DNA from: Deltaproteobacteria bacterium
GTDB taxonomy: Bacteria; Desulfobacterota; Binatia; HRBIN30; JACQVA1
Assembly: GCA_016210005.1 (NCBI GenBank)
Contig: JACQVA010000127.1
Coordinates: 835 to 64,834 of the forward strand
Length of the DNA stretch: 64,000 nucleotides
Direction of reading: 5' to 3'
The notes beneath the pieces were generated by a model that was not told the origin of the DNA, did not search any database, and saw only the letters and a program-made list of their open reading frames with translations. Of this stretch, positions 27,655 to 50,092 are shown one piece after another. The first letter of the stretch is position 1. Each line of letters starts with the position of its first letter. The position numbers and the translations under genes were made by a program.

Positions 27655-27861
27655 TTAGAGCTTAGCCACGTTGGTGGCTTGCAGGCCTTTGGGCCCTTGC
27701 GTGATCTCAAACTCGACCCGCTGGCCCTCGTCCAACGTGCGGAACCCTTGGCCCAGAATGGCCGAGTAGTGGACAAACACATCCTGCCCATCATCTTTGG
27801 TGATGAACCCGTAACCCTTCTGACCATTGAACCATTTCACCGTACCCTGCGGCATGGGCAC
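27655..27861 (-). CDS. cspA: Cold-shock protein (CspA family)
   Basis: [33 protein letters not shown]...[27 protein letters not shown] contains the RNP1 and RNP2 motifs. Confidence 0.9.
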
Positions 27862-30128: not shown

Positions 30129-31616
30129 ATGGCTCTGGAAACCCGCCTGTACCAAAAGCTGAGTCAGCAACTGGTCATGACGCCCCAGCTGCGCCAGGCC
30201 ATCAAGATTCTGCAAGTCTCACGTGCCGAACTCGAAGAGCTGATCGACCAGGAACTCACCGAGAATCCCACCCTGGAAGAAGAGATCGGGGCGGAAGTGG
30301 AGCCGGAGCGCCCGCGCACAGAGGAAAACCTCGACCCCGCGCCGGCCGACGACGTCGAGTCGTGGTCCGAACCGACCGAACCCAGTCGCGAGACCACCGC
30401 CGAAATCGAGCCCGAGAACCAGTCCAACGAGATCGACTGGAAGGAATACCTCGAAAACTACCGCAACGACTGGCAGGGCGCGACCGCGACCCCGGCCGAC
30501 TATGACGAGGACAAGCGCCCGTCGCTGGAAAACACCCTGGTGCGCACGACCTCGTTGACCGAACACCTCATCTGGCAACTGCGCATGGTCGGGCTCAGCC
30601 CGGTCGAAGAGTCGGTGGCGGCCCTCATGATCGGCAACATCGACGAGGCCGGCTACTTGCGCGTGCCGGTCGAAGACATTGCCTTCCAGAGCGGGCAGGA
30701 CCTCGAGCTGGTCGAGCACGTGCTCGAGAGCATCCAGGAGTTGGACCCGCCCGGTATCGGCGCCCGCGATCTGCGCGAGTGCTTGTTGCTCCAGCTGCGC
30801 GTCGAGGGCCTGGCCGACTCGGTCGCCGCCGCGGTGGTGGCCGACCACTTGCTGCTGCTCGAAAACAAGCGCTACGACAAGATCGCCAAGGAGCTCAACG
30901 TCTCGATCGAGGAGGTGGTGGCCGCCGCCAACACCATCGCCACCCTCGAACCCAAACCCGGCCGCAATTTCGGCGGCGGCGACACCCGTTACATCACCCC
31001 CGATGTGACGGTGCAGAAGGTCGACGGTGACTTCGTCGTTACCCTCAACGAGGAAGGCTTGCCGCGCTTGCGCGTCAGCTCCTTCTACCGCAGCGTGCTC
31101 GGCAACGACGAAACCACCGAGGCCAAACGCTACATTCAAGAAAAGATGCGCGCCGCCGCCTGGCTGATCAAGAGCATCCATCAGCGCCAGCGCACCTTGT
31201 TCATGGTCACCAGCAGCATCGTCAAATTCCAACGCGACTTCCTCGATCGCGGCATCGCTTACCTCAAGCCGCTCGTGCTCAAAGACGTCGCCATGGACAT
31301 CGGTATGCACGAGTCCACCGTCAGCCGCGCCACCGCCAACAAGTACGTGCATACACCGCAAGGCATTTATGAGTTGAAGTTCTTCTTTACTTCGAGCCTC
31401 AATCGCAGCGACGGCGGCGAGGACGTGTCCGCCGAGAGCGTCAAGGAGCGGATTCGCACCATCATCTCCGCCGAGGATCAGCGCCGGCCCTTCAGCGACC
31501 AACACATCGCCCAGGTGTTGGCCAAAGAGGGCGTCGACATTGCCCGCCGCACGGTGGCCAAGTACCGCGAGATGATGGCCATCCTGCCGTCCTCGAAGCG
31601 GCGGCAAGTGTACTAA
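30129..31616 (+). CDS. rpoN: RNA polymerase sigma-54 factor RpoN
   Basis: MALETRLYQKLSQQLVMTPQLRQAIKILQ is region I. The C-terminus has the RpoN box ARRTVAKYRE. Confidence 0.95.
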   Translation: MALETRLYQKLSQQLVMTPQLRQAIKILQVSRAELEELIDQELTENPTLEEEIGAEVEPERPRTEENLDPAPADDVESWSEPTEPSRETTAEIEPENQSNEIDWKEYLENYRNDWQGATATPADYDEDKRPSLENTLVRTTSLTEHLIWQLRMVGLSPVEESVAALMIGNIDEAGYLRVPVEDIAFQSGQDLELVEHVLESIQELDPPGIGARDLRECLLLQLRVEGLADSVAAAVVADHLLLLENKRYDKIAKELNVSIEEVVAAANTIATLEPKPGRNFGGGDTRYITPDVTVQKVDGDFVVTLNEEGLPRLRVSSFYRSVLGNDETTEAKRYIQEKMRAAAWLIKSIHQRQRTLFMVTSSIVKFQRDFLDRGIAYLKPLVLKDVAMDIGMHESTVSRATANKYVHTPQGIYELKFFFTSSLNRSDGGEDVSAESVKERIRTIISAEDQRRPFSDQHIAQVLAKEGVDIARRTVAKYREMMAILPSSKRRQVY

Positions 31617-31644
31617 CCCCAACCCCCACGAAGAGGAGTCCACC

Positions 31645-32178
31645 ATGCCTGTGACGGTGACCTTTCGGCGGGTGCGGCCGACCGATGCGTTGCGCCGCTA
31701 CGCCGAGACCAAGAGCCAGCGCTTGCAGAAGTTCGTACACGCGCCGGTTGATGCCCATGTGATCCTGTCGGTCGACAAGCACCGCCACATCGCCGAATTG
31801 GTGGTCAACGCCGACCGCCTGAACCTGACCGCAACCGAGGAAACCGCCGATCTCTATTCCGCCATCGACTTGGCCCTCGATAAGATCGAACGCCAACTGG
31901 CCAGACGCACCACCAAGCGCAAAGACCGCAAGTTCAACAGCGGCGCCACCGTCGAACGCGCCGCCACGGTCGGACGCGCCACCCGCGACCGCCGCGCTCG
32001 CGTGATCGCCACCGAGCGGGTCGCGGTCAAGCCGATGTCGGTAGATGAAGGCGTGCTGCAAATGAACCTGCTCAAGAAGGACTTCCTGCTGTTCAAGAAC
32101 GAGGCCACCAATGCGCTCAGCGTCGTCTACCGTCGCCGCGACGGCAACTATGGACTGATTGAACCGGAGGTGCCCTGA
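31645..32178 (+). CDS. hpf: Ribosome hibernation promoting factor, long form (HPF/YfiA)
   Basis: The S30AE N-domain reads ILSVDKHRHIAELVV...YSAIDLALDKIERQL. A C-terminal dimerisation extension is present. The gene sits at the typical position after rpoN. Confidence 0.9.
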   Translation: MPVTVTFRRVRPTDALRRYAETKSQRLQKFVHAPVDAHVILSVDKHRHIAELVVNADRLNLTATEETADLYSAIDLALDKIERQLARRTTKRKDRKFNSGATVERAATVGRATRDRRARVIATERVAVKPMSVDEGVLQMNLLKKDFLLFKNEATNALSVVYRRRDGNYGLIEPEVP

Positions 32179-32187
32179 GGCGCGGCC

Positions 32188-32649
32188 ATGAAAATCAGCG
32201 ACATCTTGCCCGAGGCGCTGGTCTTTCCGTCCCTGCGCGCCCAAACCAAGGCCGAAGTGGTGCGGGAGTTGGCCGAGCAACTGGCCGCCCAGTACCCCGA
32301 AATCGATCCCAACCGCCTCATCGAGGTGCTCTGGGAGCGCGAACGCTTGGGCAGTACCGCCATCGGCGACGGCATCGCTATCCCCCACGGCAAACTGCCC
32401 GGCCTGCGCCAGGTGCTCGGGGCCTTCGGCCGCCACGTGCAGGGCGTCGATTTCCAGTCGCTGGATGGACGTCCAACGCAGCTGTTCTTTCTGCTGGTGG
32501 CCCCGGACGACTCCGTGGGCCAGCACCTCAAAGCCTTGGCGCGGGTCTCGCGCTTGCTCAAGGATCGCGCCTTTCGCGCCCGCCTGCTGGCCGCCCCGGA
32601 TCGCGCCGAACTGTGCCGCATCATCCGCGAGGAAGATGAACGACTCTAG
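32188..32649 (+). CDS. ptsN: PTS-Ntr EIIA component PtsN
   Basis: The EIIA-2 fold is shown by GIAIPHGKL with its phospho-His. Confidence 0.85.
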   Translation: MKISDILPEALVFPSLRAQTKAEVVRELAEQLAAQYPEIDPNRLIEVLWERERLGSTAIGDGIAIPHGKLPGLRQVLGAFGRHVQGVDFQSLDGRPTQLFFLLVAPDDSVGQHLKALARVSRLLKDRAFRARLLAAPDRAELCRIIREEDERL

Positions 32650-32709
32650 CGTCAGAACCGCCGCCGCCGGCGGGATGAACCTCCAGCGCTCTTCGGGCGG
32701 GAACCCGCC

Positions 32710-33576
32710 GTGAAACGGATCCTGCGTGTCGTCATCGTGACCGGGATGGCCGGCGCCGGCAAGAGCACGGCCATCCATGTGCTGGAGGACCTGGGCTTCT
32801 ATTGCATCGACAACCTGCCGGTGGTGCTGCTGCCGCGGTTCTTGGAGCTGTGTGAGACCGCCACGGAAGGCATCGGCCGGGTGGCGCTCGGCATCGACTT
32901 GCGCGAGCGCGAGTTCCTGCACGGCTACCCGGCGGTCCTCGACGACCTGCGCCGGCAAGGCCGGCGGGTGGAAGTGCTGTTTCTTGATGCCTCGGACGCG
33001 GTGCTGGTGCAGCGTTTCGGCGAGACCCGACGGCCGCATCCGCTCGCGGGCGATGCCGGCCCGCTGGCCGGCATCGCCCGCGAGCGCGAGCAAATCGCCG
33101 GCTTGCGCGAGCGCGCCGATCGCATCGTCGACACCAGCGCCTTGACCATTCATCAGCTGCGGGCCGAACTCACGCGTGGTTATGCCGCCGGACAGATCGA
33201 AGGCACGCTGCGCTTGCTCCTGACCTCGTTCGGCTTCAAGTTCGGGCTGCCCGCCGACGCCGAAATGGTCTTCGATACCCGCTTTGTGACCAACCCCTAC
33301 TTCGTCGACGAATTGCGTGACCGCGACGGTCTCGACGCGGCGGTGGCGCAGTTCGTGCTCGATCGGGACGAGACTCGCCAGTTGCTCGCCGGCATTACCG
33401 GCTTGCTCGAACTGGTCTTTCCGCTCTACCAGCGCGACGGCAAGTCCTCGCTGGCAGTGGCTGTGGGCTGCACCGGCGGCCGCCACCGCTCGGTGGTCAT
33501 CGTCGAACGGCTGGCGCAGCTCCTGGCCGCCAAGGGCCTGGCCACCCAGGTGCGCCACCGCGACCTCGGACGCTGA
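32710..33576 (+). CDS. rapZ: RNase adapter protein RapZ (YhbJ), P-loop NTPase
   Basis: IVTGMAGAGKSTA is the Walker A motif. CIDNLP and the conserved C-terminal CTGGRHRS are present. Confidence 0.9.
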   Translation: MKRILRVVIVTGMAGAGKSTAIHVLEDLGFYCIDNLPVVLLPRFLELCETATEGIGRVALGIDLREREFLHGYPAVLDDLRRQGRRVEVLFLDASDAVLVQRFGETRRPHPLAGDAGPLAGIAREREQIAGLRERADRIVDTSALTIHQLRAELTRGYAAGQIEGTLRLLLTSFGFKFGLPADAEMVFDTRFVTNPYFVDELRDRDGLDAAVAQFVLDRDETRQLLAGITGLLELVFPLYQRDGKSSLAVAVGCTGGRHRSVVIVERLAQLLAAKGLATQVRHRDLGR

Positions 33577-42522: not shown

Positions 42523-44712
42523 TCAGAACTCGCCGACCGCGCCGCGCGGCAAATCGACGTGAAACGTGGCCCCGTGCGGTTGCACCGGGGCGAAGGTGAG
42601 GTTGCCGCCGTGGGCTTGCACCATCTGGCGCGCCACCGCCAAGCCCAAGCCGGTGCCGTGCGGCTTGGTGGTCTCGAACAGCCGAAACAGCTGCACCGAC
42701 GCGGGCAGACCGGGACCGGTATCGCTCACCGAGATGCGCACCCGGTCCTGGGCCAGCGCGCTGACCTCGATGCTGACGCAGCCGGGGCCTTGCTCGATCG
42801 CTTCCAGCGCGTTCTTGACCAGGTTGTCCAGCACCCGGCGCAGCTTGTCTTCGTCGGCTACCAGGCTGGCAGCAGCACGATCAGCGGCCCTGGTCGCCAG
42901 CGTGATACCACGGGCTGCCGCCAGCGGCTGCCACAGGTCGATCACCTCCTGCACGAATCGCGGCACCGCAATGGTCTTCAGCTCCAAGCGCTGCTCGCGG
43001 GCGAAGTCGCGGAACTCGGCGATCAGCGTGTTCAAACGGTGAGCTTCAGCCACAATCCGTTCGGCCGCGGCGCGCACCGTGCTGACGGGCCGATCGGGAT
43101 CACGGCTGGCCCGGCGCGCGATCAGTTGCGCTTGCATCGAGACGCCCGCCAGCGGGTTTCCCAGATCATGAATGATTTGCGCCGTGATCGCGCCGATGTC
43201 GGCCAGCCGCTCGCGTTGCTGCACCAGCCGCTGACTGACGGCCAACTCCGCTTCCGCCCGCTTGCGGACAATGAAATCGCCGATCTGCTTGCCGAGCGAC
43301 TCCAGCGTATCGAGCGTCTCGCGGCTGCACCTCCGCAAGTCGCGGCGGTAAAACGCCATCACCCCAATCACCTCATGGCCGTTGCCGAGCGGGAAGGCGC
43401 AGGCATGGGGCAAGCCCAACTTGATGACTATGGACGAGCGGTGAAAGCCTTCATCCGCCGTGACGTCGGGGATGCAGACGGCGCGGCCGCTGGCCCACAC
43501 CCGGCCAGGCAACCCGCCGGCGATCTGGAAGACGCTCCGGCTGCTGGCGGCTTGGAATTCCGTGGCGTCCAGCGACGGTACGTGCCACATGCCATCCCAG
43601 CGCAATTCCTGGCTCGCGGCGTCAAGGTGCCACAGCTCCCCCAACTGCCATCCCAGCCCCTCGCAGATCGCTTGCAGCAACGCAGGGGTAGCCTCCGCCA
43701 GCGATGGCGAGGCCGCCAACACCCGCGTCACCGCGTACTGCGCACTCAACCGCTGCGCCGCGCAGAGGCGCTCCGTGATGTCGTGTCCCACCGCCAGCAC
43801 GCCGAGGACGCTGCCACCGGGGTCTGTGAGCGTCTTGGTGTACCACTCGATCTCGCGTTCGTGGCCGTGCTTGGTGACAATCGGATTGATATTGCCTTGC
43901 ACCCGGGCGCCGCTGACCGCGGTCTCGAATAACTCCCGGATGCGCTGGCGGTCGCGCTGCGGCAAGAAGGTCGCAAACCAGTCGTGGCCTTGCACCTCCG
44001 ACAAGCTATAGCCGGAAACCTCCTCGAAGAAGGGGTTGAAGCGAACGATCCGGCCACGACTATCGAGCACCAACACGATCACCTGGGCGGTCTCAATCAA
44101 GCTCTCGGCGAAGTCGCGCTCGCGCCGCAGCGCCTCCTCGACGCGGATGCGTTCACTGACATCCCGCACCAGCCAGCGCACGCCCGTCAGGCGGCCGCTG
44201 GCATCGCTCACGGCGGTAGCAACCAAAGCGGCGTCAAAGCCAGAGCCATCGTCACTGGTCGGCTGCAGGCGAACGATCCACTCTTGTCCGCCCTTGTCCT
44301 GGCCTTTCTCCAAGCGCGATAGCTGCTGGCGAAATACCGGCCGCTGCTCCGGGCACACGAAAACCGCCAACGGCTTGCGCTGCAACGAGTCACGGCGCCG
44401 ATTGAGGAGTCGCGCGGCCGCGCGGTTGGCTTCCACAATCGTGCCCGCGGCGTCAGTTAGCAGGTGGGCATCGGGAGCAAGCTCGAACAGCTCCTGGTAA
44501 CGCCGGCATCGCGCTTCGAGTGCCTGCCGCGCGGCCAGCAATTCCTTACTCTCGGCTTGCGCCTCCTCCTCGGCACTGCGCAGCTTCTCCAGCGTCTCGG
44601 CCAGCGCCGCCATCGTGTTTGCGGGCAGAGCCGTACGCCGCTGGCTGCGTCCCAGCCGCTCCAACTGCACTCGCGCGGCTTTGATCTTTGCGCCGAAACG
44701 AAGCTGCGCCAT
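42523..44712 (-). CDS. Sensor histidine kinase with coiled-coil, PAS and GAF domains (start uncertain; the ORF could extend to 44808)
   Basis: The H-box is ITAQIIHDLGNPLAG. There are PAS-like segments. HATPase motifs are NLVKNALEAI, SDTGPGL and GTGLGLAV. Confidence 0.8.
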   Translation of the reverse strand: MAQLRFGAKIKAARVQLERLGRSQRRTALPANTMAALAETLEKLRSAEEEAQAESKELLAARQALEARCRRYQELFELAPDAHLLTDAAGTIVEANRAAARLLNRRRDSLQRKPLAVFVCPEQRPVFRQQLSRLEKGQDKGGQEWIVRLQPTSDDGSGFDAALVATAVSDASGRLTGVRWLVRDVSERIRVEEALRRERDFAESLIETAQVIVLVLDSRGRIVRFNPFFEEVSGYSLSEVQGHDWFATFLPQRDRQRIRELFETAVSGARVQGNINPIVTKHGHEREIEWYTKTLTDPGGSVLGVLAVGHDITERLCAAQRLSAQYAVTRVLAASPSLAEATPALLQAICEGLGWQLGELWHLDAASQELRWDGMWHVPSLDATEFQAASSRSVFQIAGGLPGRVWASGRAVCIPDVTADEGFHRSSIVIKLGLPHACAFPLGNGHEVIGVMAFYRRDLRRCSRETLDTLESLGKQIGDFIVRKRAEAELAVSQRLVQQRERLADIGAITAQIIHDLGNPLAGVSMQAQLIARRASRDPDRPVSTVRAAAERIVAEAHRLNTLIAEFRDFAREQRLELKTIAVPRFVQEVIDLWQPLAAARGITLATRAADRAAASLVADEDKLRRVLDNLVKNALEAIEQGPGCVSIEVSALAQDRVRISVSDTGPGLPASVQLFRLFETTKPHGTGLGLAVARQMVQAHGGNLTFAPVQPHGATFHVDLPRGAVGEF

Positions 44713-44865
44713 GCGCGCCACCTGCCGATTCACGCCGGGGCGAGATCCCCGGTTACGAGGCAGTTGACCACGTTCGCCCACGGCAAACAAGCGACGGGCG
44801 AAGTGCAAACCGCCGCCGGGCTTCGCGCCGCCGGCCGTTCCGTGCTAAGGGACGGTGCGCTTTCT

Positions 44866-46419
44866 ATGAACACCCTGCATGAGGAGCCGGCACTTGCCTG
44901 CGCCCCGGCGGCGCCCCCGGCGCTGACTCCGCTGCGCGTCCTGGTCGTCGAGGACTCGGAAGACGATGCCCTGTTGGTAATTGCCGAACTCCGCCGGGGC
45001 GCGTTCGAGCCGAGGTGGATGCGGGTGGAGACTGCGGAGACCATGGCGGCTGCGCTAGCGCAGCAGCCCTGGGACGTAATTCTGGCGGACTACGAGATGC
45101 CCCATTTCAGTGGACCCGCGGCGCTCAAGCTGGTGCGCGAGGCGCGCCACGATCTCCCGTTCATAATGGTGTCGGGCACCATTGGCGAAGAGGTGGCGGT
45201 GGCGATGATGCGGGCCGGTGCGCACGATTACGTGATGAAGACCAATTTGACCCGCCTGAGCGCGGCCGTGGCGCGCGAGTTGCGCGACGCCGAGGAGCGG
45301 CGCTTACGCTCCGCCGCCGAGGTCGCCCTGCGCGATAGCGAAGCCCGCTTCCAGGCTTTCATGGACCACAGTCCGGCGGTGGCCTTCATCAAGGACGACG
45401 CCGGCCGCTACGTCTACGTCAGCTCCGCTTTTGAACGGTTCTTCCAAACCACGATGGCAGCCACGCGCGGTAAGACCGATGATGACCTGTGGCCGGCGGC
45501 GGTAGCACAACGGATACGGGAAAACGACGAGGTCGTGCTCAGCCGCAACCAGGCCGTCGAGCTAACCGAAACCGTGCCGACCACCGACGGCCTGGTGCGC
45601 GACTGGGTGGTACTCAAGTTTCCCATCACCGATGCCGGCGGGCAGCGCTTTATCGGCGGCGTCGCCGTCGACGTCACCGACCGAAAGCTGGTCGAGGCCC
45701 GGGTGCAAGCGCTCGAGAAGCTGGCGCAGCAGCGCGCTCGCCTCGCTGACATCGGCGCTATCACCGCTCAAATCGTGCACGACTTGGGCAACCCGCTGGC
45801 CGGCTTGGCAATGCAAGCGCAGCTCATCTTGCACCGCGCCAAGCGTGACCCGAACCAACCGCTCAGCAGCGTCACTCAAGCGGCTGAACGCATCGTCGGT
45901 GAGGTGTTCCGCCTTGACTCGTTGATCAAGGAGTTCATGGACTTCTCCCGCGAGCAGCGGCTGGAGCTGAAACCGCTCCAGCTGTCGCGTTTCTTGCGCG
46001 AGGTGGTCAGCTTCTGGCGCCCGGTGGCCGCCGCTCGCCGGATCGATGTCGCCCTCGATGTCCCTAGGAACCTGCCGCAGTTGCTCGCCGATGAAGAGAA
46101 GCTGCGCCGGGTGTTCGAGAACTTGGTGAAGAACGCGGTCGAGGCCATCGAGATGGGGCCCGGGCGCATTCACATTGCGGTCAGTCAACCCGCACCGCAG
46201 CGCATTCGCATTTCGGTGGCCGATGACGGGCCGGGCATTCCCGAGACGGTGCAGGTGTTCCGCCTCTTCGAGACCACCAAGCGTCACGGTACCGGCCTCG
46301 GCCTGGCCATTGCCAAGCAAATCGTGCTGGCACACGGCGGCGACATCGCTTTCGAGCGGGTAAAACCCCACGGCACGGTCTTCCACGTCGAGCTGCAACA
46401 GCAGGCGCCAGGGGGATGA
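44866..46419 (+). CDS. Response-regulator receiver, PAS and histidine kinase fusion protein
   Basis: The N-terminal REC domain is RVLVVEDSEDDALL...ILADYEMPHFSG...MVSG. The H-box is ITAQIVHDLGNPLAG. The HATPase core is 65% identical to the kinase encoded divergently at 42523. Confidence 0.8.
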   Translation: MNTLHEEPALACAPAAPPALTPLRVLVVEDSEDDALLVIAELRRGAFEPRWMRVETAETMAAALAQQPWDVILADYEMPHFSGPAALKLVREARHDLPFIMVSGTIGEEVAVAMMRAGAHDYVMKTNLTRLSAAVARELRDAEERRLRSAAEVALRDSEARFQAFMDHSPAVAFIKDDAGRYVYVSSAFERFFQTTMAATRGKTDDDLWPAAVAQRIRENDEVVLSRNQAVELTETVPTTDGLVRDWVVLKFPITDAGGQRFIGGVAVDVTDRKLVEARVQALEKLAQQRARLADIGAITAQIVHDLGNPLAGLAMQAQLILHRAKRDPNQPLSSVTQAAERIVGEVFRLDSLIKEFMDFSREQRLELKPLQLSRFLREVVSFWRPVAAARRIDVALDVPRNLPQLLADEEKLRRVFENLVKNAVEAIEMGPGRIHIAVSQPAPQRIRISVADDGPGIPETVQVFRLFETTKRHGTGLGLAIAKQIVLAHGGDIAFERVKPHGTVFHVELQQQAPGG

Positions 46420-46657
46420 GGGGCAGCTGCATGACAAGGATCGCATTCCGGCCCGCGGCGGGCGGGAAGAGCGCCGGGCGCTGGCGCCGATTGCAGCCCT
46501 GGTCCGGGTTTACCAGGGGTGAGAATCCCTGCGCGCCCGGGCGGCCGCAGAGGCGTGTTCTGCGCCGGGCTGGTTGCTGGCAAGACATTTGCGGCACAGG
46601 CGGTGGCCTGGCCTCGGCGTGCGCGCCGGGCCAGTGAGTTGTCGCATGGAGGAGGCC

Positions 46658-47137
46658 ATGAGCGTAGCCGAGATGATGAGCCAAGACGTGAAGACGTGCC
46701 GCCCGCAGGACACCTTGAACTCGGCGGCCCACTTGATGTGGGAGTTTGACTGCGGCTGTGTGCCGGTGGTCGACAGCGATAACCACGTTGTCGGCATGCT
46801 GACCGACCGCGACATCTGCATGGCCGCCTATACCCAGGGCGCCCTGCTGAGCGAGCTGGGCGTGGCCAGCGCGATGTCGAAGGAGGTATACACGTGCGGG
46901 CCGCAGGACACGCCAGCGGCGGCGGAAGAGTTGATGCGGGCGCACCAGATCCGGCGCCTGCCGGTGGTCGATGCTGCCGGCCGCCTCGTCGGCCTCGTGT
47001 CGTTGAACGACCTGGCGCGGGAAGCCGGGCGCCAGCCCGCGCGCAAGACCAAGAGGCAAGTCAAAGCCGACGAAGTGATAACTACGCTGGCTGCAATCTG
47101 TGCCCGGCGCCCCGGGCCGCAACTGAGCGCAGCGTAA
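46658..47137 (+). CDS. CBS-domain pair protein
   Basis: There are two CBS repeats (CVPVVDSDNHVVGMLTDRDI and RLPVVDAAGRLVGLVSLNDL). Confidence 0.75.
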   Translation: MSVAEMMSQDVKTCRPQDTLNSAAHLMWEFDCGCVPVVDSDNHVVGMLTDRDICMAAYTQGALLSELGVASAMSKEVYTCGPQDTPAAAEELMRAHQIRRLPVVDAAGRLVGLVSLNDLAREAGRQPARKTKRQVKADEVITTLAAICARRPGPQLSAA

Positions 47138-47231
47138 CTTGACCGCCCGCCACCGATGCCGCCAGTCCATCCGGCGCGCGGCCGCCGCGGCGGCGCCGCG
47201 CCCGCGACTCGCGCGTAGTCAGGAGTGACAC

Positions 47232-47792
47232 ATGCAACTGCCGTTACAGATCACTTTTCGTGAGATGGAACCGTCCGCCGCGGTCGCCGCCAAGATTCGC
47301 GAGCGCGCCGCCAAACTCGACGAATACTACGAGCGCATCATGAGCTGCCGCGTGGTGGTCGAGGCCCCGCATCGCCATCGCCACCAAGGTAAGTTGTTTC
47401 ACGTCCGCATCGATCTAACCGTGCCCAACGGCGAACTGGTGGTCAAGCGCGAGCCCGCCGCTCATCACGCCCATGAAGACGTTTATGTGGCCATCCGCGA
47501 TGCCTTCAATGCCGCGCAACGCCAGCTCGCGGACTATGCCCGCCGCCAGCGCCGCGACGTGAAGACCCACGAGGCGGCGCCGCCGGCCCGAGTCGCTCAG
47601 CTGTTTCCCGAAGCTGAATACGGCTTCATCGTTACCTTCGATGGCCGCGAGATCTACTTCCACAAGAACAGTGTGCTCAACCACGGCTTCGCGCGCTTGG
47701 AGGTGGGCACCGAGGTGCAGTTTGTGGAGGAGCAGGGCGAGAAAGGCCCGCAGGCGAGCACGGTCAGAGTGGTGGGCAAGCCCCGCGGCTGA
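47232..47792 (+). CDS. Fusion of an HPF/YfiA (S30AE) ribosome-associated inhibitor domain and a cold-shock domain
   Basis: The N-terminus MQLPLQITFREME...YYERIMSCRVVVEAPHRHRHQGKLFHVRIDL...YVAIRDAFNAAQRQL matches HPF. The C-terminus YGFIVTFDGREIYFHKNSV...GFARLEVGTEVQFVEEQGEKGPQAS matches a cold-shock domain. Confidence 0.65.
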   Translation: MQLPLQITFREMEPSAAVAAKIRERAAKLDEYYERIMSCRVVVEAPHRHRHQGKLFHVRIDLTVPNGELVVKREPAAHHAHEDVYVAIRDAFNAAQRQLADYARRQRRDVKTHEAAPPARVAQLFPEAEYGFIVTFDGREIYFHKNSVLNHGFARLEVGTEVQFVEEQGEKGPQASTVRVVGKPRG

Positions 47793-47828
47793 GGGTGACC
47801 GCCGTGCTCATCCCCAAGCACCTCGTGT

Positions 47829-48740
47829 CTACGCCGGCACGATGGTCGTGCCGGTGGTGCCGCTGAGAGCGCCTTCGATAGCGCCGAGGGTGGCGATAAC
47901 CGCGGGCCGCGCGGTGGCGCTGGCGAATTGCACTGCGCTCTCCACCTTGGGCGCCATCGAGCCGGGCGCAAAGACGTGATGCGCCAGACGCTCGCGGGCT
48001 TGTGCCACCGTCATCCGATGAATTGCCTGCTGATCGCTGGCACCGAATTGATCAAAGGCGTGCGACACGTCGGTCACGAACAGCAGACACTCGGCTCGTA
48101 AGGCTACCGCCAGGAGCGCGGCCACCCAATCCTTGTCGATCACCGCCGGTTGTGCCCGGCGCACCCCGGCAGTCTGCGCCAGCGCTACGCCGCCACCGCC
48201 GCCAGCCACAACGTGACCAGTGGCCAACAGTGTGCGAATCGCCTCGGCTTCGATCACCGCCAACGGGCGCGGCGACGCCACCACCCGGCGCCAGCCGCGG
48301 CCGTCGGGTGTCGGCAACGAGGCTACGCCGGCGGGCTTACTACTCAGTACCGCCCCCACCGGCTTGGTGGGCTGCGCAAAGGCCGGGTCGCCCGCGTCGA
48401 CCAGCACCCGAGTGATTATCGCTACGCCGGCGGCCCCGCCCAGCTCGTGATCTAATGCTTCCGCCAGCAAGTAGCCGATCTCCCCTTGCGTCTGCGCCAC
48501 GTGCACATCGAGGCGCTCGGAATCGCCGAAGCCCGGGGCGGCAAGCAGGCGGCCTACTTGCGGGCCGTTGCCGTGGACAACGAGCAAGCGCCAGCCGCGC
48601 CGCGCCAGGCCGGCCAGCTCACTAACCGCGCGTTCGATGACCTCGCGCTCGGTGGCAAATGATAGATCCCCGGCCGGCGGCGTGATGGCATTGCCGCCGA
48701 GCGCCACAACCATCAGCGGTGAGCTGGCCGCGACACTCAT
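47829..48740 (-). CDS. arcC: Carbamate kinase (amino-acid kinase family)
   Basis: MVVALGGNA and VVHGNGPQVG are signatures. The C-terminal region AVIDKD...FVTDV is present. Confidence 0.75.
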   Translation of the reverse strand: MSVAASSPLMVVALGGNAITPPAGDLSFATEREVIERAVSELAGLARRGWRLLVVHGNGPQVGRLLAAPGFGDSERLDVHVAQTQGEIGYLLAEALDHELGGAAGVAIITRVLVDAGDPAFAQPTKPVGAVLSSKPAGVASLPTPDGRGWRRVVASPRPLAVIEAEAIRTLLATGHVVAGGGGGVALAQTAGVRRAQPAVIDKDWVAALLAVALRAECLLFVTDVSHAFDQFGASDQQAIHRMTVAQARERLAHHVFAPGSMAPKVESAVQFASATARPAVIATLGAIEGALSGTTGTTIVPA

Positions 48741-50092
48741 GGAATCACAGCGCCGAACCGGGCAGCAAGGAAGTCGTCGACGATGGTACCCAGGGTCGGC
48801 TCGCCCGCGTCGGCGTACTCGTAGCGGGCGCGCACCACCGGCTTGTCGAGCGCGATCAGCGCTGCCAAGTCAATCGGCGTGGCCGCCACCACCACCTCGG
48901 CCGCCGCCGCGTTGATCGTCTGGCGCAGGGCCGCGAGCTGCTCGGTGTTGTAACCGACCGCAGGCAGGACCGGCCCGATGTGGGGATACTGCCCGAAGAC
49001 GGCCCGCAAGCTGGCAGCAGCGAACGGCCGCGGATCGACGATCGCCGCCGCCCCCACCGCCATCGCCGCGCGGTACCCAGCCCCGTGCGGCAGGCCCCCG
49101 TGCGTGATCGTCGGCCCATCCTCGACCACCAGCACCCGGCGCCCGCGGACGGCATCGGGATCATCCAAGCGCACCGGCGAAGCCGCCCGCACAATGGCGG
49201 CGGACGCGTTGACGGCGCGGATGTCGTTGACCACCTGCTCGACCTGTGCCGGCGTAGCCGCGTCCACTTTGTTCACCACCGCCACGTCGGCCATGCGCAA
49301 CACCGCCTCACCCGGGTGATACGCTGCCGCCTGTCCCGGCCGCAGTGCATCGGTCATCGCAATCAGCAGGCTCGGGCGAACGAACGGAAAATCATTGTTG
49401 CCGCCGTCCCAGACGATGATGTCCGCCTCGCGTTGCGCCTGCGCGACAATGGCGGCGTAATCCACGCCGGCGAAGACAACGTTGCCGGCCTCCAAGTGCG
49501 GCTCATACTCTTCGCGCTCCTCGGCCGTGCACCGAGCCGCGTCGAGATCGGCGGCGGTGGCAAAGCGCTGCACCCCTTCGCGCTCCAAATCGCCGTACGG
49601 CATCGGATGGCGCAGGACGGCCACCCGCAGGCCACGGCTGCGCAAGCGGCGGCCCAGCCAGCGCGCGGTCTGCGACTTGCCGCAGCCGGTGCGGATGGCA
49701 CAGACCGCGATCACCGGTACGCTCGCCAGCAACATGGTGCGCTGGGGTCCGAGCAAAACGAAGTCGGCGCCGCAGGCGAGCGCCCGCGCGGCCAGGTGCA
49801 TCACGTGCGCGTGCGACACGTCGCTGTAAGCGAACACGACTTGATCGATGCGCTCGCGCCGGCAGATAGCTTCCAGTTCGGTTTCGTCCGCAATCGGGAT
49901 GCCCGCCGGATAGCGGGCACCGGCCAGCGCTGCCGGATAACGGCGGCCACTGATGCCGGGAATCTGCGCGGCGGTAAACGCCGCCACCGTGACCGCCGGA
50001 TCGTCGCGGTAAACGACGTTGAAATTGTGGAAGTCGCGCCCGGCGGCACCGAGGATGAGCACACGGATCGGCGTGGCCACGGTCACCTGCAC
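48737..50092 (-). CDS. Cyclic-2,3-diphosphoglycerate-synthetase-like / DUF1611-type protein (Rossmann-like N-domain plus P-loop domain)
   Basis: The N-terminus RVLILGAAGRDFHNFNVV is Rossmann-like. The P-loop is IRTGCGKSQTARWLG. A 4-nt overlap couples it to the carbamate kinase. Confidence 0.4.
   Translation of the reverse strand: MQVTVATPIRVLILGAAGRDFHNFNVVYRDDPAVTVAAFTAAQIPGISGRRYPAALAGARYPAGIPIADETELEAICRRERIDQVVFAYSDVSHAHVMHLAARALACGADFVLLGPQRTMLLASVPVIAVCAIRTGCGKSQTARWLGRRLRSRGLRVAVLRHPMPYGDLEREGVQRFATAADLDAARCTAEEREEYEPHLEAGNVVFAGVDYAAIVAQAQREADIIVWDGGNNDFPFVRPSLLIAMTDALRPGQAAAYHPGEAVLRMADVAVVNKVDAATPAQVEQVVNDIRAVNASAAIVRAASPVRLDDPDAVRGRRVLVVEDGPTITHGGLPHGAGYRAAMAVGAAAIVDPRPFAAASLRAVFGQYPHIGPVLPAVGYNTEQLAALRQTINAAAAEVVVAATPIDLAALIALDKPVVRARYEYADAGEPTLGTIVDDFLAARFGAVIP

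Follow-up and report, generated by a model that had tools for sequence, protein, structure and literature searches.

An HPFcold family member with fused HPF/RaiA and cold-shock domains in an uncultured Binatia-like bacterium

Introduction

The name of the cold-shock domain (CSD) is historical, and free cold-shock proteins (Csps) bind single-stranded RNA with little specificity. A CSD joined to a ribosome hibernation domain has recently been described in Coxiella burnetii, where the protein CBU_0020, named HPFcold by its authors, consists of an HPF/RaiA domain (PF02482), a six-residue linker, and a CSD (PF00313) (Stuart et al., Nat Commun 2026, PMC13392368). Cryo-EM of ribosome-bound HPFcold (PDB 9T0Z, 9TZE) placed the N-domain in the tRNA/mRNA cleft of the 30S subunit, on the mRNA route, with the CSD on the side where mRNA exits and the anti-Shine-Dalgarno (anti-SD) ACCUC of the 16S rRNA 3′ end wrapped around it (PMC13392368). 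bS21 clamps the CSD, with uS7 in contact as well, and conservation within HPFcold is reported to cluster on the anti-SD interface (PMC13392368). At the level of single contacts, Y142 stacks with U1534 and F132 with C1535, which also forms a pseudo-pair with R123, and R177 bridges two rRNA backbone segments (supplement, PMC13392368). The authors use an insertion in the β2–β3 loop to separate CBU_0020 from the short HPF CBU_0745, and propose that the 16S 3′ end is shielded from RNases in a monomeric 70S ribosome, a 100S-like protection achieved without dimerization (PMC13392368). Expression of the Coxiella HPFcold gene rises 10.5-fold as cells pass into the stationary-phase small-cell variant. 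Taken alone, the Coxiella case might suggest that the fusion replaces lost Csps or a lost 100S machinery.

A study independent of the Coxiella structure, "The evolutionary lifecycle of ribosome hibernation factors" (bioRxiv 10.1101/2025.11.04.686544), describes HPF variants in which the dimerization domain is missing and a Csp, SigE, or CBS domain is attached. Across the genomes analyzed there, chimeras always occur together with a canonical HPF, which stays in the hpf operon while the chimera is found at variable loci; such chimeras are proposed to restore a long HPF that had been truncated (bioRxiv 10.1101/2025.11.04.686544). In archaea, HPF-CBS fusions (Hib/HibA and AHA) are hibernation factors.

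Two further systems frame the comparison. In Escherichia coli, RaiA (YfiA, pY) sits with its N-domain in the decoding cleft in 70S hibernation and RMF binds at the anti-SD region, so that both footprints are combined in a single HPFcold chain; unlike HPFcold, however, RaiA ends in an unstructured C-tail, RMF is a separate small protein, and neither possesses an OB-fold. Long HPFs, such as those of Staphylococcus aureus and Thermus thermophilus, share a homologous N-domain of the same fold with HPFcold and are expected to use the same 30S site, but they carry a dimerization domain where HPFcold carries a CSD; 70S rather than 100S hibernation is accordingly expected of the latter. Here we describe an HPFcold gene from a Binatia-like lineage and compare it with these systems.

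Results and Discussion

Gene and domain architecture

The window, a 64 kb stretch of one contig, encodes a 186-residue two-domain protein with the following features.

47232..47792, + strand: window HPFcold gene; 186-aa ORF with ATG start; HPF/RaiA N-domain, short linker, cold-shock domain
47219..47223, + strand: Shine-Dalgarno-like AGGAG, 6 nt 5′ of the HPFcold ATG, as read from the sequence
47244..47552, + strand: N-terminal HPF/RaiA (S30AE) domain, residues 5–107; β-α-β-β-β-α fold; PF02482
47556..47585, + strand: flexible interdomain linker, approximately residues 109–118; pLDDT <50 at 109–115; β1 of the C-domain begins at 119
47586..47771, + strand: C-terminal cold-shock domain, residues 119–180; five-strand OB fold; PF00313

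Both domains recognized by the sequence-only reading, which had proposed an S30AE-type N-domain followed by a complete CspA-like OB-fold, were confirmed. Pfam assigned PF02482 (Ribosomal_S30AE) to residues 5–107 with 61.9 bits against a gathering cutoff of 23.7, and PF00313 (CSD) to residues 127–180 with 42.7 bits against a cutoff of 27. The PF00313 match starts only at profile position 11; the domain is nonetheless counted as complete because the AlphaFold2 (AF2) model contains all five strands, and a gap-free alignment of 62 residues to the genome's own Csp also covers it. No match to the PF16321 dimerization domain was found by Pfam at E ≤ 1.

NCBIfam returned only sub-threshold hits, to yfiA/RaiA in the N-terminal half and to CspE/CspA in the C-terminal half, and the best Csp model, CspE, scored 34.6 bits against a cutoff of 120. 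The protein falls outside the definition of a free Csp (a single domain of ~70 aa with an NCBIfam equivalog score), as its CSD is fused, and it is not a long HPF, since it is without PF16321, which the product of 31645..32178 in the same window contains. The NCBI annotation of the exact window protein is "HPF/RaiA family protein".

Within the N-domain, the β2–β3 loop, PHRHRHQGK (residues 46–54, between strands 38–47 and 55–64), is rich in His and Arg. The CSD displays an RNP1-like EYGFI (129–133) and an RNP2-like IYFH (141–144). Like CspA-family proteins, it has the five-strand OB fold and RNP1/RNP2-like motifs, and its identity is 35–37% with Csps of Bacillus and with the Csp of the genome itself; it differs in being fused and in replacing the conserved Trp of β1 (KWF) with QLF. 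A further difference from the CspA family is that the ligand in the HPFcold homolog is a defined rRNA tail, with no evidence of induction by cold.

GC content (0.635) and GC3 (0.786) of the gene lie within the range of neighboring genes, and nothing mobile was noted adjoining it. Recent horizontal acquisition thus finds no support in the neighbor-like GC and GC3. That the ORF is a spurious product of high-GC DNA is ruled out by thousands of conserved homologs.

Predicted structure

The AF2 model of the window HPFcold has a mean pLDDT of 79.5 and a pTM of 0.52. Its CSD comprises strands 119–125, 130–134, 140–144, 161–169, and 172–180, which are all five of the OB fold. The helix of the N-domain ends near residue 110 and β1 of the CSD begins at 119; the low confidence of the intervening linker and the pTM of 0.52 are as would be expected for two tethered domains, and the interdomain geometry of the model is unreliable.

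When compared with the PDB by Foldseek, the N-domain of the model matched RaiA/HPF structures at TM scores of 0.83–0.90 (8rd8_D, 0.87; 4hei_A, 0.90), and the C-domain matched Csp structures at a TM score of 0.86 with an rmsd of 1.6–1.7 Å (1hza and 1c9o, 1.7 Å). The predicted structure therefore supports both folds, HPF/RaiA and Csp, independently. Among the top 50 Foldseek matches, all were to a single domain of either RaiA/HPF or Csp type. The chains of 9T0Z and 9TZE were absent from these 50; the PDB library used, which extends to 2026-04-08, presumably predates these entries.

Relation to Coxiella HPFcold and spread of the family

A phmmer search of PDB sequences retrieved a single full-length match, chain 9 of 9T0Z/9TZE (9t0z_9 / 9tze), a 183-aa "Ribosome hibernation promoting factor" that aligns with residues 1–178 of the window protein at an E value of 1.4e-45 and spans both domains. 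BLASTP gave 46% identity to C. burnetii CBU_0020 with a single 5-residue gap, and the phmmer alignment crosses the interdomain linker stretch without a gap. The two proteins have the same domain order, are collinear over their full length, are both without PF16321, and share F132 and Y142; the Coxiella loop PKRHQHQGK aligns with PHRHRHQGK of the window protein, and in both genomes a second, canonical HPF-family gene is present.

The window protein contains an AAHHA insertion (residues 76–80) that is absent from Coxiella but represents the majority state in the family, and Q123 and T177 stand in place of Coxiella R123 and R177, both of which contact the RNA. Other contrasts concern the hosts: the paralog in the window is a long HPF of the 100S-forming type, whereas the Coxiella paralog is a short HPF and RMF is absent there; the window genome retains a free Csp (27655..27861), whereas Coxiella is reported to have lost dedicated Csps, leaving the fusion as its sole CSD protein; and the window derives from a free-living, high-GC Binatia/"Deltaproteobacteria" metagenome-assembled genome (MAG), whereas Coxiella is an intracellular pathogen. 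The differences from the Coxiella type member are of setting, not of kind.

The sequence-only reading was not aware of this architecture having been characterized. That view did not hold, as 9T0Z and 9TZE show a full-length homolog on the ribosome and two papers from 2025–26 name and survey the class as HPFcold or HPF-Csp chimera. The architecture also proved to be widespread and to have an annotated function already, an outcome that the sequence-only reading had itself named as refuting its claim. A word-indexed search retrieved >7,800 homologous clusters at 90% identity, with both Pfam domains present in all of the best 120 of these; an exhaustive search of 50%-identity representatives gave 445 clusters at E ≤ 1e-30; and when GTDB species were scanned, each represented by one genome, HPFcold turned up in at least 575 of them. 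Homologs are named "HPF/RaiA family ribosome-associated protein", "ribosomal subunit interface protein", or [quoted passage not shown]. Among the clusters listed from the word-indexed search, one "Deltaproteobacteria bacterium" MAG has an identical sequence, and the closest relatives are Candidatus Binatia. The species from the GTDB scan span Gamma-, Alpha-, Beta-, and Zetaproteobacteria, Myxococcota (Sorangium cellulosum), Binatia, Nitrospirota, Cyanobacteria (Nostoc, Gloeobacterales), Acidobacteriota, Planctomycetota, and Gemmatimonadota. The window HPFcold is thus an ordinary member of a family that has been named, solved on the ribosome, and surveyed in 2025–26, and it illustrates that family cleanly in a Binatia-like lineage of soil or groundwater that is uncultured and high in GC.

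Conservation of the RNA-binding face

To assess conservation, 125 diverse representatives from the exhaustive search, with 43–65% identity to the query, were aligned with the window protein and its Coxiella counterpart. The stacking aromatics are strongly retained, F132 in 108 and Y142 in 116 of the 125 relatives, and both are identical in the window protein. G131, F143, H144, G159, G172, Q174, and A175 are likewise conserved, and these residues, F132 and Y142 included, agree with the reported clustering of conservation on the anti-SD interface (PMC13392368). The His/Arg-rich β2–β3 loop is also conserved across the family in this alignment.

Of the four named anti-SD contacts in Coxiella, the window protein keeps the stacking pair F132/Y142 and differs at R123 (Q) and R177 (T). 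Q123 is a minority state, as the position is occupied by R in 66 and K in 20 relatives (R/K in 86 of 125) and by E in 12. T177, on the other hand, belongs to the T/S state found in 86 of 125 relatives, with R in only 7, and by this alignment R177 is a peculiarity of Coxiella. Every testable HPFcold feature is present in the window protein except for two of the four named contacts, one of them Coxiella-specific.

These data bear on the ligand of the CSD. The sequence-only reading had suggested an "mRNA- or rRNA-directed stress factor"; the rRNA half of this proposal agrees with the evidence, while the mRNA half survives as a minor rival. Under the latter, the CSD would bind mRNA rather than rRNA, tethering or selecting transcripts at the ribosome, and the protein would act as a translational regulator or RNA chaperone. 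The little-specific binding of single-stranded RNA by free Csps would be compatible with such a role, as would the retention of RNP1/RNP2-like motifs and 37% identity to the genome's own Csp, and Q123, in place of the Arg that pairs with C1535, could loosen anti-SD specificity. We nevertheless regard mRNA binding as highly improbable: in the only solved homolog mRNA is excluded, as its path is filled by the N-domain and the anti-SD is held by the CSD, the window N-domain still has the HPF fold by which the decoding center is blocked, and conservation across the family clusters on the anti-SD interface.

Long HPF and free Csp in the same window

The window also contains a canonical long HPF gene and a canonical free Csp gene.

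30129..31616, + strand: rpoN, directly before the long HPF gene
31645..32178, + strand: canonical long HPF, PF02482 + PF16321, in the rpoN-hpf-ptsN-rapZ operon
32188..32649, + strand: ptsN, after the long HPF gene
32710..33576, + strand: rapZ, last gene of the rpoN-hpf-ptsN-rapZ operon
27655..27861, − strand: canonical free cold-shock protein, a true Csp

The identification of 31645–32178 as a long HPF in the rpoN operon and as a paralog of the fusion stood up, with PF02482 and PF16321 both present in its product and the gene located between rpoN and ptsN/rapZ. The rpoN-hpf(long)-ptsN-rapZ operon (30129..33576, +) is intact and lies 15 kb from the chimera on the same contig; the window HPFcold gene itself stands among unrelated genes. 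The N-domains of the two window HPFs are 26% identical, and the long HPF is a coexisting ancestral paralog of the window HPFcold. This arrangement matches the published HPF-Csp chimeras, which likewise combine a truncated HPF with a Csp at a variable locus while a canonical HPF is found in the hpf operon; it departs from that account in that the paper stresses horizontal transfer and plasmids (bioRxiv 10.1101/2025.11.04.686544), whereas the window gene has neighbor-like GC.

The CSD of the window HPFcold is 37% identical to the genome's own Csp (27655..27861). An origin of the CSD as a recent copy of that Csp was rejected on these grounds, given the 46% identity of the whole fusion to its Coxiella counterpart; the comparison indicates that the fusion is old and was inherited as a unit. 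The presence of HPFcold beside both a long HPF and a free Csp further implies that the fusion does more than stand in for lost Csps or a lost 100S machinery.

The coexisting long HPF also informs a second alternative, in which the CSD would be a dimerization module that takes the place of the lost PF16321, and the protein would drive formation of 100S-like ribosome dimers. CSD dimerization was raised as a formal possibility by the authors of the Coxiella structure (PMC13392368), and the proposal that chimeric HPFs restore a truncated long HPF (bioRxiv 10.1101/2025.11.04.686544) points in the same direction. Dimers were, however, absent from the Coxiella particle set, in which the CSD is buried against 16S rRNA, bS21, and uS7 (PMC13392368), and the window genome already has a long HPF with a true dimerization domain. 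A dimerizing role for the CSD is therefore extremely unlikely.

Proposed function

The window protein is very probably an HPFcold ortholog that acts as a 70S hibernation factor, with the N-domain blocking the decoding cleft and the CSD sequestering and protecting the anti-SD tail. Its architecture, full-length orthology, conserved stacking aromatics, predicted fold, and coexistence with a canonical HPF are results of this analysis; the ribosomal part of the model draws on the Coxiella protein, by homology to which the window protein would bind the ribosome, bind the anti-SD, and protect it from RNases.

On this model, the N-domain would settle in the decoding cleft of the 30S subunit, where it would overlap both the route of the mRNA and the position of the A-site tRNA and so bring translation to a halt. 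The CSD, positioned by the short linker, would lie on the 30S platform where mRNA exits, and there its aromatic face (F132, Y142) would grip the single-stranded anti-Shine-Dalgarno 3′ tail of 16S rRNA. With the tail so held, initiation would be blocked and the 16S 3′ end shielded from RNases. The predicted outcome is a protected, monomeric 70S hibernating ribosome formed without the 100S dimer that the long HPF of the rpoN operon makes.

Against the hibernation reading stand the changes at two of the four named contacts and the long HPF itself, which in the same genome already protects ribosomes via 100S dimers. As to when HPFcold would be used, the expression of the Coxiella gene and the stress genes that neighbor homologs in other genomes suggest stationary phase or dormancy and not cold; no link of the window HPFcold to cold was found.

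Genomic neighborhood and a CBS-pair gene

The immediate surroundings of the window HPFcold gene comprise the following genes.

44464..46419, + strand: hybrid receiver-PAS histidine kinase (N-terminal receiver, PAS, HisKA, HATPase_c), just upstream of the CBS-HPFcold pair
46646..47137, + strand: stand-alone CBS-pair protein gene; PF00571, two stretches, 99 bits; 94 bp upstream of HPFcold
47829..48740, − strand: carbamate kinase, downstream of and convergent with HPFcold
48737..50092, − strand: 451-aa ORF beyond the carbamate kinase gene, convergent with HPFcold

No sigma-70 promoter was predicted in 46300..48100, where a single terminator was predicted at chance level, and an Rfam scan of the whole 64 kb window returned no RNA family, with neither an rRNA nor a leader RNA. 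Neither the 16S 3′ end of the organism nor its bS21 is encoded in the window. A Balon-type neighbor was not identified among the eleven window ORFs scanned.

Across 4 close and 80 distant loci, no conserved operon surrounds HPFcold. The neighborhoods of close homologs already differ, one with a sigma-70 factor and BON, another with DksA/TraR, USP, and ribonucleotide reductase, and another with CBS, radical SAM, FtsH, and HSP20. Stress genes (USP, HSP20, DksA/TraR, BON, CBS) nonetheless occur around homologs, and the pattern across the 80 loci fits both the "variable locus" description and a general association with stress and dormancy. The commonest neighbor family is CBS-pair-like: of 80 species loci, 11 (14%), from several phyla and with varying gene order, have such a gene no more than 4 kb from HPFcold; USP, YbaK-like, HSP20, RtcA/RtcB/archease, and PCMT follow. 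In some loci (L021, L025, L038, L077) the CBS-pair gene is directly adjacent to HPFcold, and another is found in L007/L008. The stand-alone CBS-pair protein has ~150–165 aa, and similar genes near HPFcold in other genomes include the following.

L021, 4599–5048: CBS-pair gene
L025, 822–1271: CBS-pair gene
L038, 3993–4442: CBS-pair gene
L077, 4777–5190: CBS-pair gene
L062, 1825–2316: CBS-pair gene
L067, 2820–3404: CBS-pair gene
L007, 2629–3796: CBS-pair gene

This recurrence is one small lead, given the archaeal HPF-CBS hibernation factors. It raises the possibility that HPFcold and the adjacent CBS-pair protein form a two-part module in which the CBS protein senses the adenylate or energy state and controls loading or release of HPFcold. 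The window CBS ORF is the only one in 64 kb and lies on the same strand as HPFcold with no predicted terminator between them, similar genes recur in the 11 loci above, and HPF-CBS fusions are both established as archaeal hibernation factors and reported among bacterial HPF variants. On the other hand, 86% of the surveyed loci are without a CBS gene and the loci share no conserved operon, CBS pairs occur commonly as generic regulators, the PDB matches of the window CBS protein are not specific to hibernation factors, and Coxiella HPFcold binds ribosomes in the structure without such a partner. A joint module is, on balance, unlikely. In its broader form, the proposal would be that in free-living bacteria with a long HPF, HPFcold is the ribosome-binding half of a split energy-sensing module with the CBS-pair neighbor as sensor, and this, too, we consider doubtful. 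If true, CBS-HPFcold would mirror the archaeal HPF-CBS fusions in trans and provide a stress-specific 70S route parallel to 100S formation.

The PDB matches of the CBS neighbor include possible ribosome-complex chains (e.g., 9znf_4), judged only from single-character chain IDs. As a clue to function these matches were set aside as uninformative, being at the same level as those to generic CBS proteins.

RNA-repair genes were observed within 4 kb of HPFcold in 4–5 of 80 loci; the RtcA-, RtcB-, and archease-like assignments were judged from sequence alone. They are of interest given the proposed guarding of the 16S 3′ end by HPFcold, and may be coincidence.

L031, 2866–3897: RtcA-like gene
L022, 1613–3043: RtcB-like gene
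L014, 6072–6491: archease-like gene

For the hybrid kinase upstream of the CBS-pair gene (44464..46419), the true start is probably internal, as the first ~130 residues resemble read-through. A PAS/GAF kinase, a response regulator, and USP are also found upstream of HPFcold in L005/L006. On the opposite strand, the 451-aa ORF (48737..50092) matched no Pfam or NCBIfam family above threshold and gave a weak MeaB-like P-loop match of 18.6 bits; its stop and the carbamate kinase start overlap by 4 bases, which suggests translational coupling of the two.
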